The position numbers were made by a program, and so were the translations under genes. The notes beneath the pieces are model-generated. The model had not been told where the DNA came from. It did no database searches and saw only the letters and a program-made list of their open reading frames with translations. From a virus (taxonomy: Duplodnaviria; Heunggongvirae; Uroviricota; Caudoviricetes): DNA of 21,199 nucleotides. The DNA lies in IMG/VR virus record IMGVR_UViG_2541047774_000002; one strand, given 5' to 3'. Shown here in pieces: positions 3,887 to 21,199 of the stretch. Each line of letters opens with the position of its first letter. The stretch's first letter is position 1.

Positions 3887-3898
3887 CGGAGACTGAAA

Positions 3899-5338: not shown

Positions 5339-5360
5339 GACGCGCCGAGCGTCTTTTTTT
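5339..5360 (+). terminator. possible rho-independent terminator (GACGC-gccga-GCGTC then TTTTTTT)
   Basis: 5-bp stem, 5-nt loop, 7 T; the stem is short so this is weak. Confidence 0.3.
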
Positions 5361-5562
5361 GTGCCGTTAGCCAGACTCACACTTTTTTCAGTGATGCGGT
5401 TATAATCCGCGTCGCTTGCAAAATTATGGTGGGCTGGACAGGGCAGCCGAAAGGCTGGCCGGTTTCCTTGTACGCCGGTACTGCGAACTCTGTTCAGTCC
5501 ACCACCAGCGAGTTTCGCAGCTCCGGTGGTGGGAAGAATTCCCAGTACAAGGAGGCTGCCAC

Positions 5563-5757
5563 ATGCTGGCTACTACCCCTACCCAAAAACCGCAATTTAT
5601 CTGGATTATCGCCGCAGTTCGCCGCGATTGCCCGACAATTACCGCCAAAATTCATCATATTGCTGCCGAGTCTGAACGCGATGCTCGCCGTTCTCTGGTG
5701 CGCGATCACGTCTGCTTTTTTGCTGGTCGTATCCGCATGGAGGTGGCACATGATTAA
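5563..5757 (+). CDS. small hypothetical protein (64 aa)
   Basis: ATG preceded by a near-consensus SD AAGGAGG at 5549-5555; first gene of a translationally coupled chain that runs to the primase; function unknown. Confidence 0.5.
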   Translation: MLATTPTQKPQFIWIIAAVRRDCPTITAKIHHIAAESERDARRSLVRDHVCFFAGRIRMEVAHD

Positions 5758-5968
5758 AACCTACGATGTGCATATGGATCCCCTCGAACGCACAAGCCAG
5801 ATCATCACACTGACAGAAGTGATTAATGACATTCTGGTGAGCAACTCTCCCTCACGAGACGAAAAACTGAAGGCGTTACTCGCGATATTGGATCTCGCCG
5901 TTCGTGACGTTCATTTCCTGCTGGAAGGTGGCGAAATGCCAGGAAAAACGGGGGCAACCAATGAATAA
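5750..5968 (+). CDS. hypothetical protein (72 aa)
   Basis: ATG overlaps the upstream stop (ATGATTAA); GGAGG upstream; this is the 3' segment of the 355-aa track ORF, whose upstream part I reject. Confidence 0.5.
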   Translation: MIKTYDVHMDPLERTSQIITLTEVINDILVSNSPSRDEKLKALLAILDLAVRDVHFLLEGGEMPGKTGATNE

Positions 5969-6155
5969 CTCAATTAATGCCCCTCGACTTACGTCCGCAC
6001 TTCAATTAATCGAGCAAGCAGCGGCTGTCCTGGTTGCTGTCAGTCTTTCGGCTGAAGAAATGGACGCTGCTGATGTCGTGGATGCGATTAAAGCGTGCTC
6101 ATCTTTGGTTAACGATGCTCGTGCAGAGCTGGTAATTCTTGGGGGTGAAAAATGA
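5961..6155 (+). CDS. hypothetical protein (64 aa)
   Basis: ATG overlapping the upstream stop (ATGAATAA); alternative start at 5904 in the track. Confidence 0.45.
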   Translation: MNNSINAPRLTSALQLIEQAAAVLVAVSLSAEEMDAADVVDAIKACSSLVNDARAELVILGGEK

Positions 6156-6415
6156 ATATCAACTTAATTTATCGTCATCCGTGTGAGCTGGAAATTGAAT
6201 CATTGCTGAGCCGTGAAGAGCCATATCCAGACACATTCACTCTTGCAGATCGCACGACTGAACGGCTTACCAGAGCGCGCACAGGTCTGGTTCATGTGAT
6301 GAATGAGATTCTTCCATCGGTGGGAGGGGAACAGGCGACAGTAATCACTAGCTGGCTACAAAAAGTTACCTCTCTGATAGATATCAGTTTAATCGATGCG
6401 GAGAGTGCGAAATGA
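6152..6415 (+). CDS. hypothetical protein (87 aa)
   Basis: ATGA start/stop overlap with the upstream gene; acidic protein. Confidence 0.55.
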   Translation: MNINLIYRHPCELEIESLLSREEPYPDTFTLADRTTERLTRARTGLVHVMNEILPSVGGEQATVITSWLQKVTSLIDISLIDAESAK

Positions 6416-6633
6416 CCAACATCCAGCTCATTGAAGCACAATGTCGCATCGAACAGGTTCAGACTGTTTTAGGGTTCTGGCTTGAAGGGGCCAGCCCCAG
6501 CAACAGAGACAAGTTAATGATTGGCGCGGTTATGTCACTGCTCAATGGCGTACCAGAAGCTATTCAGGAAGCAGACGAATTGTTGGGCAAATATGAGTTA
6601 CAGAATCATTCAGGCGAGGCGAAACATGAATAA
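6412..6633 (+). CDS. hypothetical protein (73 aa)
   Basis: ATGA overlap with the upstream gene. Confidence 0.55.
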   Translation: MTNIQLIEAQCRIEQVQTVLGFWLEGASPSNRDKLMIGAVMSLLNGVPEAIQEADELLGKYELQNHSGEAKHE

Positions 6634-7228
6634 TTTCTTAACTTTCCATGCAGAAGCAACGCCTGACGGCGTAAACATCATGTACCGCAGCAACGATGGA
6701 ATGACAGAACGCGTTGAGGCCGTCTCATATATTGATGCCGTAAATCGTCTGGATGCCGGGGATTATGACGATAAACCAGATGAAGGTATGTCAATACATC
6801 TCGCTATAGCCGATGGCGGCAACCAGGGATATTTCGATTACACATCACAGCATAACGTCATTATGTGGAGATGGCTGATCGCAACAGTATTCATGCTGGA
6901 AATGAGAGAGGAAAACGGCACTGTCAGCATCATTGATGATACTGGCAATCCTTCCGAAGTGGCTGTTTATTCCAACGGCATCGTCGCCATGCCGCTGTAT
7001 CCAGTAGCAGAGCGCCTCGCTATGGCAAACAACATTGAGGGCGCGATGATAGAACGTTTTGGCATCGAGTCTGGCACAGAACGCGCCATCATTTTCTACA
7101 GAGCCATGATGGATGTGGAACAAGGAGCACTGACTCCATTTGGTCGTGAAACGCTTGCTGAACTTCACAACAGCTTTATAGCTGAACTGAATGAAAACGG
7201 CATGCCAGCGGAACCAGTGACGCACTGA
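6626..7228 (+). CDS. hypothetical protein (200 aa)
   Basis: ATG at 6626 overlaps the upstream stop; the track's alternative start at 6521 is less likely because it would overlap the preceding gene by more than 100 nt. Confidence 0.55.
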   Translation: MNNFLTFHAEATPDGVNIMYRSNDGMTERVEAVSYIDAVNRLDAGDYDDKPDEGMSIHLAIADGGNQGYFDYTSQHNVIMWRWLIATVFMLEMREENGTVSIIDDTGNPSEVAVYSNGIVAMPLYPVAERLAMANNIEGAMIERFGIESGTERAIIFYRAMMDVEQGALTPFGRETLAELHNSFIAELNENGMPAEPVTH

Positions 7229-7238
7229 GGATGGAACC

Positions 7239-7580
7239 ATGATTACTAAAAATTTCCGACTGAATGCGCTGGCAAATAAGTATGCGTCGGCACTGTATAA
7301 CCACATTACCTCCACCAGCGGCGGGGACTATTTCATGGTTGATGCGGACGGCGAGGCCGTCCGTGTGGAAATCGTCAATGGAGTAAAAGGCGTTCGCAGC
7401 CTGATCGATAGCTACACACTAGCAACCATGAAAGTGTTCTACCCGCAGTGGGAAACCGTGGGGATCGAGCTTCTTGATCGTTGCGTCACTAAGGACGGAT
7501 TGACTGACGTTGGGCGCGAGATATGGCAAAGCATGGTTAATGACATGGGCGCAACTGTAGCGGGAGGTTCTCATGCGTGA
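7239..7580 (+). CDS. hypothetical protein (113 aa)
   Basis: ORF with GAGG about 8 nt upstream; same operon. Confidence 0.6.
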   Translation: MITKNFRLNALANKYASALYNHITSTSGGDYFMVDADGEAVRVEIVNGVKGVRSLIDSYTLATMKVFYPQWETVGIELLDRCVTKDGLTDVGREIWQSMVNDMGATVAGGSHA

Positions 7581-7944
7581 AAATGCAGAAATGGCGCTTA
7601 GCTCCGCAATCGGAGAGCAGGTGGCAAAGATTGCTGGTGCTGTGTGGATTCATAACCTTCATTCTACTGGTGAAGAGAAAATGGCAATTCAGACGCCAGA
7701 GGGACGCACCATTACTACATCTCTGAAGCCGTCAGATGTTTGTGATCTGATTTGCGCATTCATGTACCCAGCAATGAGGACTGCCCACGGCGATAAGTGG
7801 AAACTTGCGACAACCGCTGAATTTGATATGTGGCTAAACAATGATGGCATGCTGACTGATTACGGAATAACCAAGTGGCAGATGCTGGTTAGCCATATCG
7901 CAAACGCTATAGACCACGTGGGGTACGGTGATGCGAAACATTGA
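7573..7944 (+). CDS. hypothetical protein (123 aa)
   Basis: Overlaps both neighbours; same operon, immediately upstream of the primase. Confidence 0.6.
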   Translation: MRENAEMALSSAIGEQVAKIAGAVWIHNLHSTGEEKMAIQTPEGRTITTSLKPSDVCDLICAFMYPAMRTAHGDKWKLATTAEFDMWLNNDGMLTDYGITKWQMLVSHIANAIDHVGYGDAKH

Positions 7945-10687
7945 TCTTATCCGTCAGGTTATCAGTGCGTCTGAAAACAACTGGCCTCATGTGCTGGGCT
8001 GCCTGAACATAAATGTCCCTGACTCTCCGCGCCGTCATGCTCCCTGCCCTGCATGTGGGGGCAAAGATCGATTCCGGTTCGATGACAACGGGCGCGGTAG
8101 CTTCATCTGTAATCAGTGCGGCGCTGGTGATGGGCTGGATTTAATTAAACGCGTAAATAACTGCGACACAACAGAGGCGGCGCTTCTTGCCGCTGATGTT
8201 CTGGGTATTGATTACCGGACAACGGAAACACCAGAAGCCACCAGCCAGAAACGGGAACAACTGGAAACCGAGCGCCAGCGACGCGAACAGGAGCGCCTGA
8301 AAAGGGCAGAGAAGGATGAACAACAAAGACGGGATACGTTTTCCCGTCAGTTTGATGACATGCGCAGAAAGGCTGTAAACGGCAAATCTGATTATCTGGT
8401 TGCGAAAGGGGTAGGTGATTTTACATTCCCCGTGTTGCCCGATGGATCTCTGTTGCTGGCGCTGGTGGATAAATCCGGCGCAGTCACAGCAGCACAGACA
8501 ATTACCTCACATGGTGAAAAAAGACTCCTGACAGGTTCAGCAAAGCGGGGGGCATATCACGCCATAAACGCACCAGAAACAACACAGAGCATCTTAATCG
8601 CAGAAGGGCTGGCAACGGCATTATCTGCCCATTTAATTCGTCCAGAGGCGCTGACAGTGGCGGCGATTGATGCCGGGAACCTGTTATATGTCGCCCAGGT
8701 ACTGCGGGATAAATTTCCTTCAGCACAAATTATCATTGCTGCGGATAACGACCACAGCGAAGGAAGACAAAACACGGGGAGAATAGCAGCAGAAAAAGCA
8801 GCTTTATCTGTTTCTGGATGGGTGGCATTACCCCCGACAGATCACAAAGCAGACTGGAATGATTACCACCAAAAACACGGCATTAAATGCGCCACAGAAG
8901 CGTTCAATAAGTCAATGTACCAACCACAGGGTAATGGCGTGAAACAGGAGCCACAGACCATTGAGGGAAGCGATTTTAAGGTTATGGATACCGACCCACT
9001 GAAACCAAGAATAGAAAGCCGCGAGGATGGTATTTATTGGGTATCTCCGAGAGCTGACAGTCAGAGTGGAGAAATCATCAATAACGAAAGCTGGTTATGT
9101 TCTCCGTTAAGCGTTATCGGTACTGGCAGAGACGATAAAGACCAGTATCTCATTCTTCGCTGGCTGTCGTTTGGTTCTGAAACGCCGACAACCGCTGCCA
9201 TTCCACTGGCTGATATTGGTGAACGTGAAGGATGGCGCACACTTAAAGCTGGTGGGGTAAATGTCACGACCAAAAGCAGCCTCAGAGCAATACTGGCAGA
9301 CTGGCTACAACGCAGTGGCTCTCGTGAATTGTGGCGTGTTGCTCATGCCACTGGCTGGCAATGCGGAGCGTACATCATGCCTGATGGGGAAATCATCGGA
9401 ACACCTGAAAATCCTGTGCTGTTCAGCGGGAGAAGCTCAGCCGCAGCCGGATATACCGTCTCAGGGAGCGCGAAAAGCTGGCGTGATAACGTGGCGCGTC
9501 TGGCCTTTGGTAACTATTCAATGATGACCGGGATCGGCGCAGCACTGGCAGCGCCATTGATTGGGCTGGTGGGCGCTGACGGGTTCGGCATTCATTTCTA
9601 TGAGCAGTCGAGCGCAGGTAAGACCACCACGGCAAACGTGGCGAGCAGCTTATACGGCAACCCTGATTTACTGCGGCTGACGTGGTACGGAACCGCGCTG
9701 GGGCTGGCAAATGAAGCTGCCGCCCACAATGACGGACTAATGCCGCTTGATGAAGTTGGTCAGGGCGCTGATCCTGTCAGTGTTTCACAGTCTGCCTATG
9801 CGTTATTTAACGGTGTAGGGAAACTGCAAGGCGCTAAAGATGGTGGAAACCGGGATCTAAAACGCTGGCGTACAGTGGCAATCAGCACCGGAGAAATGGA
9901 TTTAGAAACATTTATCGCTACTTCCGGGCGAAAAACCAAAGCCGGGCAACTGGTGCGACTGCTGAATATTCCGTTGAGTAAAGCAGTACGCTTTCACGAT
10001 TACCAGAACGGAAAACAGCACGCAGACGCACTGAAAGACGCTTACCAGCATCACCACGGCGCAGCCGGGCGTGAGTGGATTAAATGGCTGACAGACCACC
10101 AGCAACAGGCAATTAAAACTGTTCGTGACTGCGAAAGCAGATGGAGAAGTCTGATCCCATCCGATTATGGTGAGCAGGTTCACCGTGTAGCCGCGCGATT
10201 TGCCATTCTGGAGGCCGCATTGCTGTTAGGCGAGGTTGTAACAGGCTGGGATGCTCAGACATGCCGTGATGCGATACAGCACAGCTATAACGCATGGTTG
10301 CGCGAGTTCGGCACAGGTAACAAAGAGCATCAGCAGATTATTGAACAAACGGAGGCATTTCTTAATGCCTATGGGCTTAGCCGTTTTGCACCATTTCCAT
10401 ACAGCCCGGCAGATTTGCCCATCAAAGATTTAGCCGGATACCGTCAGCGTGGAGAACATGACGAAAGCCCAATGATTTTCTACACATTCCCGGCCACATT
10501 TGAAAAGGAGATCGCATGTGGTTTCAACGCAAAACAGTTTGCTGAAGTGTTGAAAAAAGCCGGGATGCTAACCCCACCAAACAGCGGTCGTGGATACCAA
10601 AGAAAATCACCACGTATTCAGGGACGACAAATAAACGTTTATGTACTCAATTACCAGCCAGGAGATTATAACTCATCTGAAGAATGA
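7928..10687 (+). CDS. replicative primase-helicase (zinc-ribbon + Toprim + P-loop NTPase), P4-alpha/PICI-Pri-like
   Basis: 919 aa; N-terminal Cys4 motif CPACGG...CNQCG; Toprim-like acidic motif IIIAADNDHSEG; Walker A EQSSAGKTT and Walker-B-like GLMPLDEVGQ in the C-terminal half; followed directly by iterons. Confidence 0.9.
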   Translation: MMRNIDLIRQVISASENNWPHVLGCLNINVPDSPRRHAPCPACGGKDRFRFDDNGRGSFICNQCGAGDGLDLIKRVNNCDTTEAALLAADVLGIDYRTTETPEATSQKREQLETERQRREQERLKRAEKDEQQRRDTFSRQFDDMRRKAVNGKSDYLVAKGVGDFTFPVLPDGSLLLALVDKSGAVTAAQTITSHGEKRLLTGSAKRGAYHAINAPETTQSILIAEGLATALSAHLIRPEALTVAAIDAGNLLYVAQVLRDKFPSAQIIIAADNDHSEGRQNTGRIAAEKAALSVSGWVALPPTDHKADWNDYHQKHGIKCATEAFNKSMYQPQGNGVKQEPQTIEGSDFKVMDTDPLKPRIESREDGIYWVSPRADSQSGEIINNESWLCSPLSVIGTGRDDKDQYLILRWLSFGSETPTTAAIPLADIGEREGWRTLKAGGVNVTTKSSLRAILADWLQRSGSRELWRVAHATGWQCGAYIMPDGEIIGTPENPVLFSGRSSAAAGYTVSGSAKSWRDNVARLAFGNYSMMTGIGAALAAPLIGLVGADGFGIHFYEQSSAGKTTTANVASSLYGNPDLLRLTWYGTALGLANEAAAHNDGLMPLDEVGQGADPVSVSQSAYALFNGVGKLQGAKDGGNRDLKRWRTVAISTGEMDLETFIATSGRKTKAGQLVRLLNIPLSKAVRFHDYQNGKQHADALKDAYQHHHGAAGREWIKWLTDHQQQAIKTVRDCESRWRSLIPSDYGEQVHRVAARFAILEAALLLGEVVTGWDAQTCRDAIQHSYNAWLREFGTGNKEHQQIIEQTEAFLNAYGLSRFAPFPYSPADLPIKDLAGYRQRGEHDESPMIFYTFPATFEKEIACGFNAKQFAEVLKKAGMLTPPNSGRGYQRKSPRIQGRQINVYVLNYQPGDYNSSEE

Positions 10688-10712
10688 GCTTCTTCATGTG
10701 CGTAGAAAAGGT

Positions 10713-10823
10713 GTTGGTTCAGTTGGTTCAGTTGGTTCAATTTGTAAATAGTATTGTTTTATAAGGATTTTATTCTTTTTATTGAACCAACACTGAACCA
10801 ACAACACGGTATTTTGAACCAAC
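10713..10823. repeat. iteron cluster / putative replication origin: 3 tandem GTTGGTTCA (10713-10739), AT-rich spacer, 3 inverted TGAACCAAC (10783-10791, 10794-10802, 10815-10823)
   Basis: Repeats counted directly; iterons flanking an AT-rich core directly downstream of a primase-helicase gene is standard satellite/plasmid origin architecture. Confidence 0.6.
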
Positions 10824-10873
10824 ACAATGTGACTGAATTGATGCGCACAACACCTGGCTGGCATCAGAGAGTG

Positions 10874-10950
10874 TTTTACGAGACTTTCGTAAAATCCTGT
10901 GTACAAGGGCGTGACGTTTTTGAAAGTGGGCACTACGAAATTTTCGTAGT
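10874..10950. promoter_or_regulatory. two related palindromes: TTTTACGA-n5-TCGTAAAA (10874-10894) and perfect 19-bp ACTACGAAA-T-TTTCGTAGT (10932-10950); candidate operator pair
   Basis: Shared TACGA(A/G)A...TTTCGTA half-sites about 40 bp apart; neither is followed by a T-run, so they are more likely protein-binding sites than terminators. Confidence 0.35.
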
Positions 10951-11143
10951 TCAAAAAACAGCCTCTGAGAAGTTGTTATGCCTGTTCAGCAAACCATCCA
11001 CATAGCTGATCGCGAATCAAATTACCAATGGAGCCAGAAGCAAGGGCAGAACTGAAAAGCGCCTGCCGTGAAGAGTAATGCGACACCATAAATATAGTTT
11101 TTAGAGTCCATAAAAAACCTGTCAAAACCTGACACACAGAACG

Positions 11144-11177
11144 ATGCCACCAGCTACTGAGCGGTGGCATTTTTTTG
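11144..11177 (+). terminator. rho-independent terminator (ATGCCACC-loop-GGTGGCAT then TTTTTT)
   Basis: Perfect 8-bp stem, 11-nt loop, 6-7 T on the + strand; separates the replication module from the downstream operon. Confidence 0.6.
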
Positions 11178-11271
11178 TGCTATTTGTTTCATATTTTGCA
11201 ATTACGATGATGAATATTGCGATTTGTGAAACTATAATAACTGTTGTTTTATACAGTTCTAAGGGGGCGTT

Positions 11272-11433
11272 ATGGCTATTTCAGTAAAGCCGGTATTGAT
11301 AAGTGAGAAGCAAATGGAAGCGATAAAGAAAATTCAGGAAGAGCAGCGTAAAAAATCAGGAATTGGAGTAGCGCCAACTCTGCATGAAATTGCACGAGGG
11401 TTAATAGATAAGGCGCTGGCAGGCTGTATGTGA
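11272..11433 (+). CDS. small protein (53 aa), possible small DNA-binding regulator
   Basis: Not in the ORF track (under 60 aa). ATG 5 nt after AAGGGGG; translation read by hand: MAISVKPVLISEKQMEAIKKIQEEQRKKSGIGVAPTLHEIARGLIDKALAGCM; stop 16 nt before the next gene; sits right after an AT-rich promoter-like region. Confidence 0.4.
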   Translation: MAISVKPVLISEKQMEAIKKIQEEQRKKSGIGVAPTLHEIARGLIDKALAGCM

Positions 11434-11449
11434 AAATGGATGGCATCGC

Positions 11450-11911
11450 ATGGAACTAAAATTTATTGATAACCCTGTGCGATTACAGGCCTTTCTTAAC
11501 GAGCCAGGCAATACCGAAAATATTGTTGAGCCGGGGCACACGTACTACATCAAGCCTGATGCGGTATATCTCGGCATCTACGAAGGATTAGTGCTGGCTG
11601 GCGTTCATGAAGTGCGTAACTTCTGGCATAGCGTTGTTGAATGCCATGCGGTGTACGACCCCGGATTCCGTGGTGAATATGCACTGCAAGGGCATCGATT
11701 ATTCTGCAAATGGCTTCTCGAAAACTCACCATTCCTTAACAGCATCACTATGGTTCCTGACACCACGAAATATGGACGGGCAATTATCCGTTTGCTTGGC
11801 GCTACCCGTGTTGGTCACCTTGATGATGCTTATATCAGATGTGGTAAACCCGTCGGCGTAACGCTTTATCAGTTAACTCGGCAACAATATAAGGAATTCA
11901 GCGAATGTTAA
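11450..11911 (+). CDS. hypothetical protein (153 aa); possible accessory protein of an ejection-protein module (P22 gp14-like position)
   Basis: Normal globular composition; stop overlaps the start of the 699-aa gene (ATGTTAA); the positional assignment is inference only. Confidence 0.7.
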   Translation: MELKFIDNPVRLQAFLNEPGNTENIVEPGHTYYIKPDAVYLGIYEGLVLAGVHEVRNFWHSVVECHAVYDPGFRGEYALQGHRLFCKWLLENSPFLNSITMVPDTTKYGRAIIRLLGATRVGHLDDAYIRCGKPVGVTLYQLTRQQYKEFSEC

Positions 11912-14004
11912 TTACCCATATAGCTCATAAACATCTCAATCGTGCCGTATACGAAAAAGGCGGTGATGGTGGTGCCTCTAAAGCTCAGGCGAAGGCCCAG
12001 CAGCAGGCAATTGATTTGCAGCGCGAGCAGTGGAATACGGTGATGAATAATCTCAAGCCGTATGCAGAAGTCGGATTGCCTGCTTTACAACAACTGCAAG
12101 GACTGATGACTCTGGAAGGGCAGAATAAAGCCGCGAATGATTTCTTTGGTTCTGGTTTATATAAAACACAGGCAGATCAGGCCCGTTATCAGAACCTTGT
12201 CTCAGCAGAAGCTACCGGGGGGCTTGGCTCAACAGCTACCAGTAACCAGTTATCTTCCATTGCGCCCATGCTTTATAACAATTGGCTCAGTGGGCAAATG
12301 CAAAATTATGGAAACCTGCTAAATGTCGGGATGAATGCGGCATCAGGGCAGGCAACAGCAGGGCAAAACTACGCCAATAATACCGGGCAACTCTTGCAGG
12401 GGCTTGGCGCTATTCGTGCAGGTCAGGCGCAGCAGCCATCCAGTCTTGCGCGTGGTATTGGTGGGGCGGCATCAGGCGCTTTAGCGGGTGCGCAACTTGG
12501 TTCCGTTGTTCCGGGTATAGGTAATGTCGCCGGGGCTATTGGTGGTGGGCTTATTGGTCTTGTTGGGGGGGCTTGGATTCTAATGGCGACATGGCAACTT
12601 GGCGGGCTGCCTAGCATGGCACCGCAAAATGATAATGCTCCTCGTTCTTCCGTTCCTCAGCCTGTGCAGTATCAGCAGCACCCAAACGTAGGTTTAATGG
12701 CGCTACAGGGGCTAAGAGGCGTTGCTGAGATTAATCAGCAGGCACGTCAACAACAGCGTAAAGCAGAGTTTCAGAAAGCATATGCCGGGGCTTTTGAGTC
12801 TGGAGACAGAAACAAAATGCGCAGTCTTATTTCTGAGTATCCAGAAGAATTTGAAAGCGTTCAGAAAGGGATGGGCTTTATTGATGACGACCAGAGAAAT
12901 TCTATTGGTCATCTTGCGACTAGTGCTCAAATCGCATCTTCGCTCGGAACTGGGGCATTTGGAAAATTCATAGCAGATAACGAAGATGAAATGCGTCGCT
13001 TGGGAATTTCTCCTGAGTCTGTTGCCGAAATGCATGTTAATGATCCACAGGGATTCCAGCGGCTTGCTGGTAGTATGGCACTGTTTTCTCTCGGTCATGA
13101 GAAGTATTTCGATATCAAAGATCAAATGGAAGGTCGGGATATTGAGCGTGGCAAGTTGGCAGAGACAATCCGCAGCAATCAGGCTGGCGAAGCACTTCAG
13201 GCGAGAGGGCAGGATATTAGCCGAGCAAATGCGTTAACGTCAGCATATGCACCAACAGCAGCAATGCAGAATTACAATCAGTACGCTCAAATGTTAAAGG
13301 CGGATCCAGAGGGGGCGGCGGCATTTGCGGCAGCGGCTGGAATTAATACAAACGCCAAAAAATTAATGAGTGTTAGAGAAAACGATGATGGCACTGTCAC
13401 AAAATACTACACAGACGGAAGTGAAGAGCAGGGAAAACTAAACCAGCCAATATCTGGAGATGGGTTTCGTCCAATAGCTTTGCCAACAGCCCAAAAGATC
13501 ATGGAAAAGTCGCCAGAAGGGGCTAAAAAAGCTGCTGGATTTGCATACAGGGTTAGGGATGCTCTTGATTCAATAGATACACTGAAAGACCAGCTTAGCC
13601 CACAGCGAGTGGCGATCATTAATAATGCTTTGGGTAATGGGACGCTGGCTAACTTAACGCTCAGCCCAACAGAGCAGCAATACGTTGTTAATGCTAATGA
13701 CGCAATAATGGCAATACTCCGTCAGGAAACAGGGGCAGCTATCGCACCTGCTGAAATGTCAAAATATTATCAAATGTATTTCCCTCAGCCTGGCGACTCC
13801 ACAAAAACCATTGATACCAAGCGCCGGAAGATGGAAAACCAGTTCAATTCGCTGAAAGCTGCTTCTGGTCGAGCTTATGATGCTTTGCGGGTTATTTCAG
13901 CAGTTGACAGAGGAACTTCTTCTTCGTCGCAGACATTGCCGCAATCTGAGCAGGTATCACAGCCAGCAGCCAGCAGTAACTTTTCTTCACTATGGGGTGA
14001 TTAA
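11905..14004 (+). CDS. large low-complexity protein (699 aa); candidate phage ejection / internal-virion (DNA-transfer) protein
   Basis: N-terminal EKGGDGG followed by a Q/A-rich coiled-coil-like stretch; Q/N/G/A-rich low-complexity region; glycine-zipper hydrophobic segment GSVVPGIGNVAGAIGGGLIGLVGGAWILMATW; essentially no Cys; translationally coupled on both sides. Confidence 0.75.
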   Translation: MLITHIAHKHLNRAVYEKGGDGGASKAQAKAQQQAIDLQREQWNTVMNNLKPYAEVGLPALQQLQGLMTLEGQNKAANDFFGSGLYKTQADQARYQNLVSAEATGGLGSTATSNQLSSIAPMLYNNWLSGQMQNYGNLLNVGMNAASGQATAGQNYANNTGQLLQGLGAIRAGQAQQPSSLARGIGGAASGALAGAQLGSVVPGIGNVAGAIGGGLIGLVGGAWILMATWQLGGLPSMAPQNDNAPRSSVPQPVQYQQHPNVGLMALQGLRGVAEINQQARQQQRKAEFQKAYAGAFESGDRNKMRSLISEYPEEFESVQKGMGFIDDDQRNSIGHLATSAQIASSLGTGAFGKFIADNEDEMRRLGISPESVAEMHVNDPQGFQRLAGSMALFSLGHEKYFDIKDQMEGRDIERGKLAETIRSNQAGEALQARGQDISRANALTSAYAPTAAMQNYNQYAQMLKADPEGAAAFAAAAGINTNAKKLMSVRENDDGTVTKYYTDGSEEQGKLNQPISGDGFRPIALPTAQKIMEKSPEGAKKAAGFAYRVRDALDSIDTLKDQLSPQRVAIINNALGNGTLANLTLSPTEQQYVVNANDAIMAILRQETGAAIAPAEMSKYYQMYFPQPGDSTKTIDTKRRKMENQFNSLKAASGRAYDALRVISAVDRGTSSSSQTLPQSEQVSQPAASSNFSSLWGD

Positions 14005-16109
14005 TGGCTAAAGCATGGAAAGATGTTATCGCCTCTCCACAGTATCAGGCGTTAGCACCAGAACAAAAAGCGCAGGCTCAGGAGCAATACTTCAATGAAG
14101 TCGTTGCCCCGCAAGCCGGAGAAAGTGTAGAGCAGGCTAAGCAGGCTTTTTATGCTGCCTATCCACTACCATCAACGAATGAAATAGACCGATCCCAATC
14201 AGCAACTCAAAATATTCAACATACATCATCTGATAATTCTCTTGCGTCAGGGTATGCAAAGTTAGCTACTCAGCAAAGAGAGGGGCTTGAGCGTTCAGCA
14301 GAACAGGGAGCCAGTCTTGGGGCTGCGATGCGCGATGCTATAACAGGCGAAAGCCGAATGACTCCAGAGATGGAGAGACTGCAAAATGTCACCTCTGCCC
14401 CAGAATTGAACTCACTAAGCATGGATGCCCTAAAGGCTGGATGGTCTCAACTTTTCGGCTCTGACGCGTCTCAGGAAAAGATTCTTCAGGGAATGGGGGC
14501 GACATTAAGGCAGGATGAGAAGGGGAATACTATCGTTTCTCTGCCATCAGGTGATTATGCCCTGAACAAGCCGGGTTTATCACCGCAAGACCTGACTTCG
14601 TTTCTTGCTAATGCGTTGGCGTTTACACCAGTGGGCAGGGCTGGAACGGTGCTTGGTGCCATAGGAAAATCAGCAGCTACAGATTTAGCACTACAGGGAG
14701 CCACCAGCCTTGCTGGTGGAGAAGATATTGATCCGTTACAAACGGTAATTTCTGCTGGCATTGGTGGTATTGGTAAGGGGCTGGAAAATACAGCGAGTGC
14801 GGTTTCGAGGGCTGTTCGTGGTGATATGTCGCCTGAAGCAAAGGCTGCTGTCGACTTTGCATCGGAAAGAAATCTGCCGTTAATGACCAGTGACATGCTG
14901 AAAGATAAAACCTTTATGCAGAGTCAGGCTCAGACATTAGGCGAAAGAGTTCCTTTTTTTGGAACCGGTAAGAATCGGCTGAATCAACAACAAGCACGAG
15001 AAAATTTAGTCAGAACATTTAGCGATGGTCTGGGTGGCATTTCTGATAAACAGCTTTATGAATCTGCGACTAAAGGGCAACAAAAATTCATTGAGGCAGC
15101 AGGAAAGCGATATAACCGCATAATTGACGCTATGGGGGATACCCCTGTCGATCTCTCAAACACGGTAAAAGCTATCGACAATCAGATTGCCGTGTTAAGC
15201 CGCCCGGGCAAATCTCAGGATAGAGCCGCGGTAAAAGTCTTGCAGCAATTTAAAGACGATATCACCAGCGGACCAAATGACCTGCGTCTGGCGAGGGAAA
15301 ACAGAACCGATCTTCGAAAGCGATTTATGGCGTCATCTGACACTGTTGATAAAGATACGCTCCAGAAAGCCAGCGATATTATCTACAAGGCATATACGGC
15401 GGATATGAAAAAAGCCGTAGCCAAAAATCTTGGAGCAGACGAAGCCATTAATATGGCAAGGGTTGATCGCTCATGGTCTAAATTCAATGACATGATGGGA
15501 AGAACGCGCGTTCAAAAGGCAATAGCCAGCGGCAAGGCCACGCCTGAGGATGTAACAAAACTCGTTTTTAGCCAAAGCCCATCAGAACGTTCTCAGCTTT
15601 ACAGGCTTCTGGATGACAATGGTAGGCAAAACGCACGAGCAGCCATAGTTCAGAATGCTGTAGATAAGGCGACTGATCCGTCTGGAAATATCAGTGTTGA
15701 GAAGTTTATTAATGCGTTACACCGGAACAGGAAGCAATCAGCAACTTTCTTTAAAGGCGTACATGGAAAGGAACTGGACGGCGTTATTAAATACCTCAAC
15801 GATACAAGACACGCGGCAAAAGCGAACGTTCAAAACTTAAATGGTCAGCAGCTTTATGGATTGTTAGTTGGTGGTGGCATCATAAACGCAGCAGTATTAG
15901 CGGGGATGCTAAAAACGGCTGCGTTTGTTGTTCCTGCTGCTGGTGCCGTAGGCGGAGCAGCGAAGGCATACGAAAGCCCTGTTATACGAAATGCCTTGTT
16001 ACGTCTGGCAAATACGCCAAAAGGTAGCACAGCATATGACAGAGCGATCAGTACGGTCACACAATCGCTCACCAGAGTCGCACAGGCATCACAAAAAGAA
16101 GCTCAATAA
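14004..16109 (+). CDS. large low-complexity protein (701 aa); candidate phage ejection / internal-virion protein
   Basis: TAATG overlap with the upstream gene; A/Q/K/S/G-rich, largely helical-looking; C-terminal Gly/Ala-rich hydrophobic segment LLVGGGIINAAVLAGMLKTAAFVVPAAGAVGGAAKA; no Cys; followed by a terminator. Confidence 0.75.
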   Translation: MAKAWKDVIASPQYQALAPEQKAQAQEQYFNEVVAPQAGESVEQAKQAFYAAYPLPSTNEIDRSQSATQNIQHTSSDNSLASGYAKLATQQREGLERSAEQGASLGAAMRDAITGESRMTPEMERLQNVTSAPELNSLSMDALKAGWSQLFGSDASQEKILQGMGATLRQDEKGNTIVSLPSGDYALNKPGLSPQDLTSFLANALAFTPVGRAGTVLGAIGKSAATDLALQGATSLAGGEDIDPLQTVISAGIGGIGKGLENTASAVSRAVRGDMSPEAKAAVDFASERNLPLMTSDMLKDKTFMQSQAQTLGERVPFFGTGKNRLNQQQARENLVRTFSDGLGGISDKQLYESATKGQQKFIEAAGKRYNRIIDAMGDTPVDLSNTVKAIDNQIAVLSRPGKSQDRAAVKVLQQFKDDITSGPNDLRLARENRTDLRKRFMASSDTVDKDTLQKASDIIYKAYTADMKKAVAKNLGADEAINMARVDRSWSKFNDMMGRTRVQKAIASGKATPEDVTKLVFSQSPSERSQLYRLLDDNGRQNARAAIVQNAVDKATDPSGNISVEKFINALHRNRKQSATFFKGVHGKELDGVIKYLNDTRHAAKANVQNLNGQQLYGLLVGGGIINAAVLAGMLKTAAFVVPAAGAVGGAAKAYESPVIRNALLRLANTPKGSTAYDRAISTVTQSLTRVAQASQKEAQ

Positions 16110-16113
16110 CTGG

Positions 16114-16137
16114 TTAGCCATGGATGGCTAATTTTTG
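16114..16137 (+). terminator. rho-independent terminator (TTAGCC-atggat-GGCTAA then TTTTTG) in the 18-bp gap between convergent genes
   Basis: 6-8 bp stem followed by a T-run on the + strand; the stop codon of the convergent minus-strand gene lies inside the hairpin. Confidence 0.5.
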
Positions 16138-16487
16138 TTCTTTGCTCTCATCCATAGGTAAAGAAGGGAAAGAACAAGACAAAAAACAGAGAATAGATAA
16201 CCTACCTCATATGGTGCGCCAAAAAAATTAGCTATTGATACGGGCAAAAAAGCTGAGGCGATCAAAATTGAAAGGCAAAAAATAAGCCCAGTAATATAGT
16301 TTATTAAATTCTTAAATGAGAAACGTTTTGCTTGATTTACGGTCTTAACGAACGATCGCTTAACGACGGATAAAAGCAAATAGATGGCGACAGTTGCTAA
16401 TGCCCCTTTCCACCAGTCTGGATATAGTTTTGCGACAATCAGACCAAGGAAAACCGTAAGCGTAAACTGACCGCCGTATGTAGCCAT
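16128..16487 (-). CDS. small integral membrane protein (3-4 predicted TM helices); 5' end interrupted by the IS66-family insertion
   Basis: Hydrophobic segments ALATVAIYLLLSVV, ITGLIFCLSILIASAFLPV, VGYLFSVFCLVLSLLYLWM; the first 11 codons of the track ORF (16456-16487) lie inside the IS left inverted repeat, so the native gene continues beyond the IS (see findings). Confidence 0.5.
   Translation of the reverse strand: MATYGGQFTLTVFLGLIVAKLYPDWWKGALATVAIYLLLSVVKRSFVKTVNQAKRFSFKNLINYITGLIFCLSILIASAFLPVSIANFFGAPYEVGYLFSVFCLVLSLLYLWMRAKNKN
16448..16455. repeat. target-site duplication GGAAAACC (left copy)
   Basis: 8 bp immediately outside the IS left end, identical to 18988-18995. Confidence 0.8.
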
Positions 16488-16540
16488 CAGACGAGAATTG
16501 GTAACTTAGACGCCCATCTGATATAGACGGACATCTAAGT

Positions 16541-16966
16541 ATGGAATTACAGGACTGGCGAAAAGAACCTCGTAAAAACTATTCGAATGAATTCAAACTT
16601 CGTATGGTGGAACTGGCATCACAACCTGGAGCTTGTGTTGCACAGATTGCACGTGAAAATGGCGTCAATGATAATGTTATTTTCAAATGGCTCAGGCTCT
16701 GGCAGAACGAAGGGCGTGTTTCGCGGCGTCTTCCGGTAACGACCTCTTCTGACACTGGCGTTGAATTATTACCTGTAGAAATAACGCCGGATGAGCAGAA
16801 AGAACCTGTGGCGGCCATTGCGCCGTCTTTATCCACTTCCACTCAGACCAGAGTCAGTGCCAGTTCCTGCAAGGTGGAATTCCGTCACGGTAACATGACG
16901 CTGGAAAATCCATCGCCAGAGCTGCTCACAGTGTTGATCCGTGAACTGACCGGGAGGGGAAGATGA
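16541..16966 (+). CDS. IS66-family accessory protein TnpA (orf1)
   Basis: 141 aa; N-terminal HTH-like region; stop overlaps the tnpB start (ATGA). Confidence 0.85.
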   Translation: MELQDWRKEPRKNYSNEFKLRMVELASQPGACVAQIARENGVNDNVIFKWLRLWQNEGRVSRRLPVTTSSDTGVELLPVEITPDEQKEPVAAIAPSLSTSTQTRVSASSCKVEFRHGNMTLENPSPELLTVLIRELTGRGR

Positions 16967-17313
16967 TCTCACTCCCATCAGGTACCCGTATCTGGCTCGT
17001 TGCCGGCGTTACCGATATGCGTAAATCCTTCAACGGACTGGGAGAACAGGTACAACATGTGCTGAATGATAATCCCTTCTCCGGTCACCTGTTTATCTTC
17101 CGTGGCCGACGGGGTGACACCGTCAAAATTCTTTGGGCTGATGCTGATGGTCTGTGCCTGTTCACCAAACGCCTGGAGGAAGGCCAGTTTATCTGGCCTG
17201 CGGTACGTGACGGCAAGGTATCCATTACCCGCTCGCAACTGGCAATGCTCCTCGATAAGCTGGACTGGCGTCAGCCAAAAACATCCAGCCGTAACTCACT
17301 GACAATGTTGTAA
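16963..17313 (+). CDS. IS66-family Orf2 / TnpB
   Basis: 116 aa; sequence recognised as the IS66 Orf2 family (LPSGTRIWLVAGVTDMRKSFNGL...); size and position typical. Confidence 0.9.
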   Translation: MISLPSGTRIWLVAGVTDMRKSFNGLGEQVQHVLNDNPFSGHLFIFRGRRGDTVKILWADADGLCLFTKRLEEGQFIWPAVRDGKVSITRSQLAMLLDKLDWRQPKTSSRNSLTML

Positions 17314-17343
17314 AAAACTCCTGACCGCATTATAAAAACGGTC

Positions 17344-18957
17344 ATGAGTCAGAAATACCTCATTCGCATCGCAGAGCTGGAAAGGTTGCTCTCTGAGCAG
17401 GCTGAAGCCCTCCGTCAGAAAGACCAGCAACTGAGTCTGGTTGAAGAGACGGAAGCCTTCCTGCGCTCTGCACTGACACGTGCCGAAGAAAAGATCGAAG
17501 AAGATGAACGGGAAATAGAACATCTGCGGGCTCAGATAGAAAAACTGCGCCGGATGCTGTTCGGTACCCGTTCTGAAAAACTGCGTCGTGAAGTTGAACT
17601 GGCTGAGGCTCTGCTGAAACAACGTGAACAGGACAGCGATCGTTACAGTGGGCGGGAAGACGATCCTCAGGTTCCCCGCCAGTTGCGACAGTCGCGCCAT
17701 CGTCGTCCGTTACCGGCACACCTTCCCCGTGAAATACACCGCCTGGAGCCAGAAGAAAGCTGTTGCCCGGAGTGTGGCGGTGAGCTGGATTATCTGGGGG
17801 AAGTCAGCGCTGAACAGCTGGAACTGGTGAGCAGTGCCCTGAAAGTGATCCGCACAGAACGGGTAAAAAAAGCCTGTACAAAATGTGACTGTATTGTTGA
17901 AGCACCGGCGCCGTCCCGCCCGATAGAGCGTGGTATCGCGGGCCCCGGATTACTTGCCCGCGTGTTAACGGGAAAATACTGCGAACATCTGCCACTGTAT
18001 CGTCAGAGTGAAATCTTTGCCCGCCAGGGTGTCGAACTGAGCCGGGCCTTACTCTCCAACTGGGTTGACGCGTACTGCCAGTTAATGACACCGGTGAATG
18101 ATGCCCTGTACCGTTATGTAATGAACACCCGCAAGGTTCACACTGATGACACACCGGTAAAGGTACTGGCACCGGGTCAGAAAAAGGCGAAAACAGGGCG
18201 TATCTGGACGTATGTCCGGGATGATCGCAATGTGGGTTCGTCATCTCCTCCAGCGGTCTGGTTCGCGTACTCGCCGAACCGGCAGGGGAAACACCCGGAG
18301 CAACACCTCCGCCCCTTCCGGGGTATCCTGCAGGCGGATGCGTTCACAGGTTACGACAGGTTGTTCAGTGCAGAACGTGAAGGTGGTGCACTGACAGAAG
18401 TTGCGTGCTGGGCCCATGCCCGGCGAAAAATCCACGATGTATACATCAGCAGCAAAAGTGCGACGGCAGAAGAAGCCCTGAAGCGAATCAGTGAACTGTA
18501 CGCCATCGAGGATGAAATACGGGGATTACCGGAGTCAGAGCGTCTTGCCGTCAGGCAGCAGCGAAGCAAAGTGTTACTGACGTCGCTGCATGAATGGATG
18601 GTGGAGAAGAATGGTACGCTGTCGAAAAAATCCAGACTGGGCGAAGCGTTCAGCTATGTACTGAATCAGTGGGATGCCCTCTGTTATTACAGTGATGACG
18701 GTCTGGCGGAGGCGGATAATAATGCTGCGGAAAGAGCGCTTCGTGCAGTCTGTCTCGGAAAGAAAAACTTTATGTTCTTTGGCAGCGATCACGGCGGCGA
18801 GCGTGGAGCACTGTTGTACGGGCTGATCGGCACCTGCCGTCTGAACGGTATCGATCCGGAAGCGTATCTGCGCCATATCCTGAGCGTACTGCCGGAATGG
18901 CCTTCCAACCGAGTTGACGAACTCCTGCCATGGAACGTAGTACTCACCAATAAATAA
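17344..18957 (+). CDS. IS66-family transposase TnpC
   Basis: 537 aa; N-terminal coiled-coil/leucine-zipper region; zinc-finger CCPECGG...CTKCD; C-terminal DDE-type catalytic region; stop abuts the right inverted repeat. Confidence 0.9.
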   Translation: MSQKYLIRIAELERLLSEQAEALRQKDQQLSLVEETEAFLRSALTRAEEKIEEDEREIEHLRAQIEKLRRMLFGTRSEKLRREVELAEALLKQREQDSDRYSGREDDPQVPRQLRQSRHRRPLPAHLPREIHRLEPEESCCPECGGELDYLGEVSAEQLELVSSALKVIRTERVKKACTKCDCIVEAPAPSRPIERGIAGPGLLARVLTGKYCEHLPLYRQSEIFARQGVELSRALLSNWVDAYCQLMTPVNDALYRYVMNTRKVHTDDTPVKVLAPGQKKAKTGRIWTYVRDDRNVGSSSPPAVWFAYSPNRQGKHPEQHLRPFRGILQADAFTGYDRLFSAEREGGALTEVACWAHARRKIHDVYISSKSATAEEALKRISELYAIEDEIRGLPESERLAVRQQRSKVLLTSLHEWMVEKNGTLSKKSRLGEAFSYVLNQWDALCYYSDDGLAEADNNAAERALRAVCLGKKNFMFFGSDHGGERGALLYGLIGTCRLNGIDPEAYLRHILSVLPEWPSNRVDELLPWNVVLTNK

Positions 18958-18987
18958 GCGTCAATACGGTGCTCCGTTGACGCTTAC

Positions 18988-19037: not shown

Positions 19038-19418
19038 TTGTTTAGAATGGCAATCATCATATATCCAAGACATGGCATTTGGTACATAGCTTGGGTCGGG
19101 ATTTCAAATCCGATCCCCGTTGATGGGGCCGTTACAGTACGCGCATATCCGCTTTATGTGAAACAGGAAGATTTTTCTGATATCACTGCCACAGCAAAAC
19201 ACCAATTTCGAGACAAGTACGCGCGCGAGGGGTATCAGTTGCAAAAAATTTTGCAACTACGTCCGACCAGTATGCACACGATGGCGGGGGGATACCATAA
19301 AACTGTTCTCTACATGAGACAGAGTGGTGGTGATGTGTTGATTATCGACGTATATGCGCACAGGACGCGCTATGACGATGTTTTATGCGGGTACACCAAT
19401 CACATGTATCTGGTGTGA
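19038..19418 (+). CDS. questionable hypothetical ORF (126 aa)
   Basis: Track ORF only; no clear SD; its 5' part overlaps the reconstructed upstream region of the IS-interrupted membrane gene on the opposite strand; may be a gene fragment or non-coding. Confidence 0.25.
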   Translation: MFRMAIIIYPRHGIWYIAWVGISNPIPVDGAVTVRAYPLYVKQEDFSDITATAKHQFRDKYAREGYQLQKILQLRPTSMHTMAGGYHKTVLYMRQSGGDVLIIDVYAHRTRYDDVLCGYTNHMYLV

Positions 19419-20051
19419 TAAATCGCGTTACATGACCTCTCATGTTGTACTGGTGGTTATCACGACGTTCTGAATCTGGCCTTTGCCTGGTATTTTGCGA
19501 CAAGTACGCGCGCGTAGCATCGAAATAATCGGATGGCGTATGCTGCTGGTAATATGAAGACCGATAGCATTAACCGTAAGGAGAAAGACTTCTCGATAAC
19601 GGCAAGGGGGCTGAATTGCGAGGCGAGATTAAGCAACTGTCTTGAACGTAAAAATCATGGAGCAACATGATGGTACGATTCATTCCATTCTTCGTTCTTT
19701 CTGAGCATTGCGTTCAGGCTTAGTCAAAATTAGTGTTGCGAGCGGACCTATTAGTAATTGTTGGTGCGATGCGTCTGTTATGGATTGTTATGGTTGTGGC
19801 AGGCCTGATTAATATCCAGTATGACCACCAGCTATGAGAGGCCACCTCAGTGGTTCGCAGTTGCAGGTTTGCACTCAGGTTCGCAGGGTTTTGGCTACTT
19901 TCACGTGCGAACCTGCAGAATTGCAAAGGACAACTAAGTCCTCTGGTCAACTCCCGGTTTATGAGCGACACAGTCCGCCTGGCGCATCGTTTTCGTCGAG
20001 CGCGCCCATCAGCTTGTCCATGGACTATCCACCACTCGATATTAAAGCTAA

Positions 20052-20237
20052 TCATTGGTTGCCAGCCCGCGAATCAAGTTTGTTCTGGATCCAAGCTTCA
20101 ACCTCCTCAAGCGACCATCTAGCTGATCTACCAATTTTAACTGGCTGTGGAAACGTGCCCGTCTTAACCCATGAGTAGATTGCCGTTTTCTTGAAGCCCG
20201 TTCTGAGCATGACTTCGCTTAATTTGATAAGGCGCAT
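20052..20237 (-). CDS. alpA: AlpA-family HTH regulator / excisionase-like (second copy, opposite strand)
   Basis: 61 aa; IKLSEVMLRTGFKKTAIYSWVKTGTFPQPVKIGRSARWSLEEVEAWI matches the AlpA pattern; no integrase or primase adjacent, so it looks like a remnant of a second element. Confidence 0.75.
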   Translation of the reverse strand: MRLIKLSEVMLRTGFKKTAIYSWVKTGTFPQPVKIGRSARWSLEEVEAWIQNKLDSRAGNQ

Positions 20238-20487
20238 AGAGGCTCCTCTGCTTTAGATTAAGCATAGTGACAATCTGGCTTTGGGTGGTATCCAAAAGCG
20301 AGGTATCCATGTTGGTATCCACCAAAACGCTGTTTACCAAAAAGTTACCACCGGAACAGGACATTTTGAGCTGTAACTTAACACATAGCATATGGAGTTC
20401 ACGCATAGACTTCACGCACAACGGCTCTGGCCAGTGAAGAATCACCCTGGCTGGCAATATAATGCCGATCACCATCAGAGGGGAATC

Positions 20488-20680
20488 CATGACACCACGA
20501 GAAATCGAGCTGCTGACCATTGCCAAGCTGGAGCATGGCGGCCACCAGCTCAGCCCGGCAGAACTGCGGGAATTAAGGCGCCAGCTGGCAGAGGGCCCTG
20601 TAATAGCCAGGCGGTACCGCGAAATGATGACCAGCCCCGCATATCGCTGGAGCAAACCAGCGCCGCTCCGTGCGCGGTGA
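20488..20680 (+). CDS. small hypothetical protein (63 aa, Arg-rich)
   Basis: In-frame ATG inside the track ORF 20462-20680 with GAGGGG about 8 nt upstream; function unknown. Confidence 0.4.
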
Positions 20681-20754
20681 GCAGCACCTAACCAGCACTA
20701 GACAAGCCCTGTGCTGGTGGATGTCCCTCATAATTAGCGGTTTTTAAACGGCGT

Positions 20755-20875
20755 GTTGGTTCACGGCCTCTTTTTGTTGGTTCAAAAATGGGGTGTGTTG
20801 GTTCACTTTTTGCGAATAATTCTTTTAAAAACAATACTCTTTACAAATTGAACCAACTGAACCAACTGAACCAAC
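20755..20875. repeat. second iteron cluster, inverted relative to 10713-10823: 3 spaced GTTGGTTCA (20755-20763, 20776-20784, 20797-20805), AT-rich spacer, 3 tandem TGAACCAAC (20849-20875)
   Basis: Repeats counted directly; 20841-20885 is nearly the exact reverse complement of 10701-10745. Confidence 0.6.
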
Positions 20876-20911
20876 ACCTTTTTGCTTATCTATATAGTCT
20901 GAGAGGCAGAA

Positions 20912-21199
20912 ATGATAAGGGACAGGAAAGCTGAAGATCTGGAGTCAAAAGGGCTATACCGGAGAGCTGCCGCACGATGGGCAGAAGTCATGATGCTGGC
21001 AGATGGCGATAAAGAACGTGAACATGCAGCAAACAGACGCTCTGAATGTATCCGTAAGGCGGCACGCCAACCAGCAACTACAGACAGATTCGGAGATTTA
21101 AGACAGGCAGTTAAGCGAACTCATTCGGCTCTTGGTATGGATGAGGAAGCGAGAGGGTACTTCAGGCGTTATCGCGATAAAGATTGCCAGAGACAGTAA
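20912..21199 (+). CDS. PerC-like small transcriptional regulator (tentative)
   Basis: 95 aa ending at the window edge with a TAA stop; N-terminus MIRDRKAEDLESKGLYRRAAARWAEVM resembles PerC-family proteins of enterobacterial prophages; assignment from memory. Confidence 0.5.
   Translation: MIRDRKAEDLESKGLYRRAAARWAEVMMLADGDKEREHAANRRSECIRKAARQPATTDRFGDLRQAVKRTHSALGMDEEARGYFRRYRDKDCQRQ

Follow-up and report, generated by a model that had tools for sequence, protein, structure and literature searches.

The locus considered here raises the question of why a chromosomal island should carry genes for phage DNA ejection. It lies in IMG/VR virus record IMGVR_UViG_2541047774_000002, a 21,199-nucleotide stretch of caudoviricete DNA, hereafter the window, which begins at proA and the tRNA gene thrW and then enters an island resembling EcCIMP1, the phage-inducible chromosomal island (PICI) of Escherichia coli MP1 (Pick, Stadel and Raivio, ISME J 2025; PMC11773190). 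Downstream of the replication module of this island is an operon whose products are related to the ejection proteins of the podovirus P22. The region is best read as the helper-exploitation operon of an EcCIMP1-type PICI, organized as a separate transcription unit. Taken one step further, it is likely that this operon provides an SOS-inducible, satellite-borne set of ejection proteins which is loaded into helper capsids.

A preliminary description had proposed a four-gene operon at this place, bracketed by terminators and encoding two large products resembling ejection proteins. Four plus-strand open reading frames (ORFs) of 53, 153, 699 and 701 aa are indeed found at 11272-11433, 11450-11911, 11905-14004 and 14004-16109, with overlapping stop and start codons in ATGTTAA (11905-11911) and TAATG (14000-14004), but the normal operon comprises five genes, orf53, gp14, gp7, gp20 and gp16, of which gp7 and gp20 are separate. 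The features of the operon are as follows.

11144-11176, plus strand: terminator-like hairpin ATGCCACC...GGTGGCAT followed by a T7 run, which parts the replication unit from the cassette operon
11210-11238, plus strand: sigma-70-type promoter (-35 ATGAAT at 11210-11215, 17-nt spacer, -10 TATAAT at 11233-11238)
11239-11258, plus strand: predicted LexA (SOS) box AACTGTTGTTTTATACAGTT, with its core CTGT-N8-ACAG at 11241-11256
11272-11433, plus strand: orf53, encoding an island-specific small protein, first gene of the operon and part of the island backbone
11450-11911, plus strand: gp14 homolog (DUF2824, 'head morphogenesis'; PF11039, 207 bits; phrog_651)
11905-12583, plus strand: gp7 homolog (PF25688, P22_gp7, 238.9 bits for a cut-off of 28, residues 16-222)
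12583-14004, plus strand: gp20 homolog of 473 aa, counted from its own ATG at 12583 (PF16928, Inj_translocase)
14004-16109, plus strand: intact gp16-type ejection ('DNA transfer' or 'injection') protein of 701 aa (phrog_770)
16112-16140, plus strand: terminator-like hairpin and T-run at the operon end, common to the convergent minus-strand ORF

The identity of these genes is supported by several profile and sequence matches. The gp14 homolog is 84% identical to Kapi1_055, and DNA similarity to P22-like phages starts precisely at its start codon (11450). The gp7 portion (residues 1-222) is identical to the 225-aa gp7 of strain 6409, and gp20, which matches PF16928 at 196.1 bits (cut-off 29.7) and phrog_917 over its full length, is 100% identical to a separate 473-aa protein of the same strain. 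As for the 701-aa protein, it has no match in the local Pfam copy but corresponds end to end to phrog_770, 'DNA transfer protein' (E = 2.5e-163), is about 30% identical to P22-group gp16 (tblastn, E = 4e-39) and 66% identical to a protein of phage N7, and over residues 69-701 shares 94% identity with the gp16 of CUS-3-like prophages, where this gene stands in the full context portal-coat-gp4-gp10-gp26-gp14-gp7-gp20-gp16. Its exact sequence is on record in 603 contigs. The genes follow the order 14-7-20-16, as they do in P22-like phages (Kapi1, for example), and have overlapping stops and starts. No cassette protein matched NCBIfam; RefSeq already labels the products 'DUF2824 family protein', 'phage DNA ejection protein' and 'injection protein', and in the EcCIMP1 paper the genes are called 'DNA transfer' or DUF2824-like and a packaging role is guessed (PMC11773190). 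Both large ORFs are free of cysteine, rich in A, G, Q and S, and contain one hydrophobic glycine-rich segment each (residues ~201-230 and ~616-650), and a YEKGGDGG motif begins at residue 16 of the 699-aa ORF, all as first described. In published accounts, gp7, gp20 and gp16 build a trans-envelope channel templated by the tail hub (PMC13622523; PMC8954989). Within this channel, gp7 is located at the outer membrane, gp20 spans the periplasm and gp16 is located at the inner membrane. Collectively, these data uphold the ejection-protein identity advanced in the preliminary description: neither the lack of similarity to ejection proteins nor the match to a defence system that it had named as fatal, nor any other such outcome, was encountered, and on sequence grounds the cassette genes can be regarded as true P22-type ejection genes. 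Its assumption of novelty was set too high, the genes being named in RefSeq and the island family having been published in 2025.

Hairpins with T-runs were found at 11144-11176 and 16112-16133, in agreement with the bracketing terminators first claimed. Terminator-like sites are not in excess in the region (8 found for 6.5 expected from shuffled sequence), so that the weight of these two sites comes not from their number but from their placement and from the conservation in other genera of the upstream hairpin, which recurs with its T-run in the E. coli, Leclercia and Citrobacter islands.

The 699-aa ORF was proposed to combine gp7 and gp20, which the Pfam domains confirm; this fusion is, however, no evolved architecture. 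The ORF depends on one extra G in the run at 12565-12571, which counts seven G in the window and six elsewhere; the additional nucleotide removes the last three codons and the stop of gp7 and leads to read-through into gp20. In strain 6409, the run has six G and the 225-aa gp7 ends in a TAA overlapping the ATG of the 473-aa gp20; MP1 and Escherichia sp. MOD1-EC7003 likewise have six. Among 5,426 complete E. coli genomes, none of the 258 matching records carries the seven-G form, which leaves the possibility of programmed or phase-variable frameshifting at the run unsupported, and gp7 and gp20 are separate in every copy examined other than that of the window. For the exact 699-aa product (EQR45430.1), the record lists 3 contigs, which bear the name of E. 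coli HVH 121 (4-6877826), and the window is therefore probably from this strain; the separate 225-aa and 473-aa products are on about 1000 contigs each. The fusion is thus a strain-private +1 frameshift, to be seen as a lesion or, at most, as a variant that is tolerated, but not as a design. This frameshift is probably real, since the same product is present in a read assembly made independently.

The satellite context of the operon, also put forward in the preliminary description, follows from the features on its left.

1369-1444, plus strand: tRNA-Thr gene (thrW), the island attachment site (ARAGORN)
1610-10687, plus strand: PICI backbone, recognized from its ORFs, a near-identical annotated locus and Pfam on the primase; it contains the five genes below and small ORFs
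1610-2824, plus strand: integrase
3252-3455, plus strand: AlpA-type helix-turn-helix protein
3899-4732, plus strand: AntA/B antirepressor-like protein
4901-5968, plus strand: ash-family ORF
7928-10687, plus strand: TOPRIM-DUF927 primase (Pfam)

The window thus has the arrangement of a PICI, with an integrase adjoining a tRNA attachment site, an AlpA-type regulator and a primase, all in one orientation. The attachment core TCCTATTATC, as defined for EcCIMP1 (PMC11773190), has a single match in the window, at 1428-1437, which is the left copy; with its IS66 insertion the island would run past 21199, and the window stops short of the right end. Over positions 1-12743 the window is 99.0% identical in DNA to the MP1 EcCIMP1 locus, and over 19093-20995 it is 98.4% identical. 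Capsid, terminase, tail or lysis genes were found neither in the annotation of the near-identical loci nor in the Pfam and PHROG scans of the tested ORFs. The element can accordingly be described as an EcCIMP1-type PICI variant, belonging to an island family and containing genes whose identities were already known.

EcCIMP1 itself has been shown to excise only in the presence of the P22-like phage Kapi1, to require its own int and alpA, to be transferred by Kapi1 at low frequency and to add to the superinfection immunity of lysogens (PMC11773190). The window shares with it the thrW site and attachment core, the integrase, alpA, antirepressor, ash and primase backbone, and orf53, gp14 and gp7 at 98-100% protein identity. 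The two elements part at a mosaic breakpoint at 12743: from 12744 the window has another gp20 body and, where EcCIMP1 encodes the 906-aa SLT-gp16 protein, a gp16 type of 701 aa. The window further differs in its downstream small ORF, in the IS66 insertion and in the private frameshift that joins gp7 to gp20. The comparison with P22-like phages (P22, Sf6, CUS-3, HK620 and Kapi1) is similarly two-sided. Protein families, gene order, translational coupling, mosaicism and cysteine-free low complexity are the same, whereas the portal, coat, gp4, gp10, gp26 and tailspike genes that surround the ejection genes in phages are absent from the window cassette, some islands retain only gp20 and gp16, and an island ORF behind a LexA-box promoter stands in front of the genes where phages have a Q-antiterminated late operon.

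The cassette is not peculiar to the window. The orf53-gp14 junction occurs in 328 of the 5,426 complete E. coli genomes and an orf57-gp20 junction in 214 of them, the frequency of the cassette being thus about 10%. Islands of the second kind, represented by a locus at thrW (L002) and by two others (L003 and L004), have orf57, gp20 (488 aa) and gp16 (701/705 aa) without gp14 or gp7; L003 lies between yicC and dinD and has another integrase, and L004 has a DUF5906 replicase. Similarity of the window to the L002/L003 cassette stops at 16127. The EcCIMP1 cassette consists of gp14, gp7, a 439-aa gp20 and a 906-aa protein which joins an SLT domain to a Kapi1-type gp16 body. Outside Escherichia, the island of Leclercia adecarboxylata has the same architecture, with a primase 68% identical, that of Serratia nevei has orf53, gp20 and SLT-gp16, and that of Citrobacter has orf53, gp14, gp7, gp20 and SLT-gp16; in all three the backbone, 52-68% identical, is far more diverged than the cassette. 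The breadth of this distribution came from orf53 homologs, a scan with a gp20 alignment having given 2 loci because the peptide patterns derived from it were narrow. The neighbourhood comparison advised in the preliminary description therefore shows the cassette recurring at other integration sites and in other genera, and the cassette is a conserved module of the island family, always placed behind an island-specific ORF of the orf53 type, with gp20+gp16 as its minimal form. The cross-genus conservation of the module, its minimal gp20+gp16 form and the conserved SOS box at its promoter appear not to have been described previously in the literature searched.

It had been argued that a P22-like fragment was to be expected here, thrW being the P22 attB. 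This rationale fails, as the same cassette is found at another site and in other genera, and a prophage remnant at P22 attB is ruled out by the presence of the cassette at these other sites and genera behind the same island ORF.

As regards conservation, the dN/dS analysis advised at the outset gave ratios of nonsynonymous to synonymous substitution of 0.13-0.30 between island copies, and all cassette genes are intact in 9 of the 12 island loci checked. The exceptions are the window (gp7-gp20 frameshift), strain 6409 (gp16 frameshift) and SEC470 (a stop in gp20). Exchange of alleles with phages is ongoing, because alleles are common to islands and complete prophages; for example, the N-terminal segment of the L002-type gp20 has ~97% DNA identity to that of a complete P22-like prophage. 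The notion that the gp16 type of the window is restricted to islands (398 genomes, with island contexts 181 + 214) was rejected, two outliers being complete CUS-3-like prophages.

An N-terminal SLT lytic-transglycosylase domain on a gp16-type protein, followed by a Kapi1-type body, was observed at L005 (MP1, 12598-15318, minus strand), L009 (Serratia, 10526-13357), L015 (Citrobacter, 11609-14305) and L008 (Leclercia, 11317-14013). In Klebsiella michiganensis, distant orf53 homologs precede genes that are not of P22 type, at L011 (9001-11649) and L013 (9001-13639). In L011 there is a 605-aa protein of phrog_7694, akin to an injection transglycosylase, and in L013 a baseplate-hub-like protein; both loci have small-terminase-like genes as well, and in both the LexA-box core is degenerate. 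Delivery-type genes thus occupy the same slot in Klebsiella, and the slot therefore behaves as a helper-exploitation module.

How would such a module be switched on? The promoter in front of orf53 has a perfect -10 (TATAAT), the same in 6 of the 7 islands that were aligned, which represent five genera, and a weak -35 which matches 3 of 6 positions; because of this weak -35, an automatic consensus promoter scan found none before the 53-aa ORF, and the promoter was recognized by eye and by alignment. A strong Shine-Dalgarno sequence is present at 11261-11267. The 20-mer of the predicted LexA box begins 1 nt past the -10 and its core lies 2 nt past it; 13 nt separate the end of the box from the orf53 ATG. 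CTGT-N8-ACAG is unique in the 21-kb window, where 0.18 occurrences are expected, and the core is found in the same position at 12 of 12 examined island loci with the ejection cassette, from Escherichia, Leclercia, Serratia and Citrobacter. As a positive control, the pattern also finds the SOS gene dinD in L003, which is the sole other match in those island loci. LexA is not mentioned in the EcCIMP1 paper (PMC11773190), and the MP1 transcriptome paper makes no gene-level statement on the cassette. From the position and conservation of the box, we infer that LexA regulates the operon.

This organization is reminiscent of operon I, the packaging module of Staphylococcus aureus pathogenicity islands (SaPIs), which is under LexA control (Ubeda et al., 2007, cited in PMC5052747). 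Both lie downstream of the replication module, have an SOS box at the promoter and contain genes related to the virion which derive from the helper or are directed at it. They differ in content, SaPIs having TerS, capsid-size and Pti genes where the window has ejection proteins, and there is no sequence relationship; LexA control is, in addition, only predicted for the window cassette. No small terminase or capsid-size genes were detected by Pfam or PHROG in the E. coli cassette, TerS-like genes being found only in the Klebsiella relatives. With capsid-forming PICIs and P4-type satellites, the common point is that the satellite supplies part of the virion itself, but those elements give capsid or size functions whereas the window gives a DNA-delivery conduit. 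With P4-type satellites, C4-type RNA, isrK, ash and icd-like features are also common, and nothing further; psu, delta, sid and capsid genes are not annotated in the near-identical loci.

The gene that leads the operon, orf53, is part of the backbone: similarity to islands with other cassette types extends to ~11420. The 53-aa ORF is not derived from phages and has no phage homolog; it has no Pfam, PHROG, NCBIfam or PADLOC match either. Homologs are found in Citrobacter, Serratia, Klebsiella and Salmonella, and its dN/dS is 0.13. An AlphaFold2 model shows an extended N-terminus and two helices, with no significant fold match; the topology is compatible with a ribbon-helix-helix protein, but neither sequence nor fold matches favour this idea.

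Based on these observations, a mechanism can be proposed. In the resting cell, LexA would hold the operon off. Upon DNA damage, a resident P22-like helper prophage would be induced while LexA is cleaved, and the island would then make its ejection proteins, which would be loaded into helper procapsids. After adsorption of a particle containing island DNA to a new cell, these proteins would form the trans-envelope conduit. The likely pay-off is that the island's own cognate gp20+gp16 pair, unlike that of the helper, would change the entry properties of the particle, for instance its sensitivity to SieA-type exclusion in lysogenic recipients. Entry of island proteins into virions and a selective benefit of the cassette are presumed in this scheme. 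Leavitt et al. (2024; PMC10883804) have shown that P22 virions can be assembled with the foreign ejection proteins of Sf6, L, CUS-3 and HK620 and that these proteins are functional there. In the same work, gp7 could be exchanged whereas gp20 had to be matched with its cognate gp16, and it was on changes in gp16 and gp20 that sensitivity to SieA exclusion depended. The need for a cognate gp20/gp16 pair fits the minimal island cassette. Between EcCIMP1 and Kapi1, identity is 83% for gp14, 57% for gp7, 26% for gp20 and, over part of its length, 24% for gp16.

Several points weigh against the loading of island proteins into helper capsids. Kapi1 titres from induced lysogens are unaltered by EcCIMP1, and the transfer frequency of EcCIMP1 is very low (PMC11773190), from which any effect of the cassette would be subtle, or Kapi1 would be a poor helper. 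Mixed helper and island sets could be incompatible, non-cognate gp20/gp16 being non-functional (PMC10883804). A terminator lies upstream of the cassette promoter. Three of the six E. coli-type loci inspected in detail have a lesion in one cassette gene, and chromosomal selection is therefore not strict; purifying selection could also have acted during the time that the alleles spent in phages, given the evident exchange. Such lesions, present in the window, strain 6409 and SEC470, together with the IS66 element that adjoins the cassette in the window and the IS insertions that break gp16 in some genomes, are what one would expect if an ancestral island had once taken up part of the late operon of a P22-like phage and this part were now a decaying and functionless leftover. 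This is, however, very improbable for a cassette that is conserved over four genera and several integration sites with mostly intact ORFs, shows the low dN/dS ratios given above, has had its alleles replaced repeatedly, and was captured with precise limits, the start codon of gp14 (or of gp20) on one side and the terminator of gp16 on the other, downstream of a conserved promoter that is predicted to be regulated.

Two other explanations keep a function for the operon but direct it elsewhere. Envelope-sited ejection proteins, or the neighbouring small ORF, might disturb the channel of an incoming phage and protect the cell from P22-like superinfection. Such an entry-exclusion or immunity module would be in keeping with the reported EcCIMP1 immunity phenotype, SieA is known to act on gp20 and gp16 (PMC10883804), and a hypervariable envelope-protein ORF does occur right after gp16, in the position of phage sieA and other morons; yet a predicted LexA-repressed promoter is ill-suited to a constitutive barrier, PADLOC gave no match, the small ORFs resemble no phage protein, a decoy would not call for a complete set of co-adapted proteins with the assembly factor gp14 among them, and the alleles are common to working prophages, which together make this explanation unlikely. 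We find it slightly harder still to believe that the operon serves helper interference, by flooding helper procapsids with gp20 and gp16 that are non-cognate and thereby yielding poorly infectious helper virions, in the manner of SaPI operon I. Non-cognate gp20/gp16 do assemble into virions without functioning (PMC10883804), the island proteins are very unlike those of the demonstrated helper, and the LexA-controlled SaPI operon I is largely an interference module (PMC5052747), but the unaltered Kapi1 titres speak against it and poisoned particles would also carry island DNA, thereby harming the island itself. A satellite-borne ejection set, one of the readings listed in the preliminary description, remains the best supported.

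If the island proteins are loaded into helper particles, this would represent a molecular piracy of DNA delivery and not of capsid size or packaging. There is, beyond this, a small but appreciable chance that EcCIMP1-type satellites routinely re-arm helper virions with a different gp20+gp16 allele and thereby enter cells that exclude the proteins of the helper. Were this the case, lysogens with SieA-type exclusion, the recipients most useful to the satellite, would become enterable, the extreme mosaicism of ejection proteins in podoviruses would have in satellites a reservoir as well as a driving force, and satellites in general would follow a strategy of bringing along DNA-delivery proteins of their own, with which the Klebsiella relatives fit. 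The question bears on the co-evolution of exclusion systems and ejection proteins, and the predicted LexA control offers a simple experimental handle in the MP1/Kapi1/EcCIMP1 system. For annotation, the 699-aa 'fusion' should be read as a private frameshift, and such loci should not be taken for degraded P22 prophages.

Beyond the operon, two further features complete the right part of the locus.

16128-16487, minus strand: 119-aa remnant, convergent with gp16, of an ORF for a 129-aa membrane protein whose N-terminus was removed by the IS66-family insertion
16456-18987, plus strand: IS66-family insertion with three ORFs (HTH_Tnp_1, TnpB_IS66 and DDE_Tnp_IS66) and an 8-bp target duplication

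The bounds of the insertion, which lies outside the cassette module, were taken from alignment breakpoints against strain 6409, and the minus-strand remnant is 95% identical to residues 15-129 of the 129-aa ORF of this strain. The ORF which follows gp16 on the opposite strand is hypervariable (16128-16487 in the window, 16782-17180 in L002 and 11749-12447 in L005, all on the minus strand), its products being a transmembrane protein, a signal-peptide protein or a lipoprotein-like protein of 232 aa, and it occupies the slot where P22-like phages carry sieA or other morons. Neither the remnant nor the other small ORFs of this slot have phage, Pfam or PADLOC matches, so that no such match favours a SieA-like identity for the minus-strand ORF, and PADLOC reported nothing for the cassette or its neighbours. 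These variable envelope ORFs are candidates for the reported EcCIMP1 immunity phenotype. Farther downstream, other islands have defence or toxin cargo, including Abi_2, RnlA/RnlB, an SLFN/AlbA_2 protein, Fic and Abi_C (L009 15650-16612, L010 16949-18162, L011 14575-15723 and L013 15498-18192).

Within the backbone, Rfam models for isrK (69 bits) and C4 antisense RNA (81 bits) match the plus strand of the window at 5282-5359 and 5422-5509, in the region of the ash-family ORF, where MP1 also carries an Icd-like gene; these matches suggest P1/P4-type RNA immunity in this PICI. Finally, an inverted pair of ~120 bp, with repeated TGAACCAACA-like motifs, is formed by 10706-10827, directly after the primase gene, and 20772-20882, directly before perC. 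It may be an iteron or origin region, or a regulator-binding region, and part of it is also found at unannotated places in other E. coli genomes.

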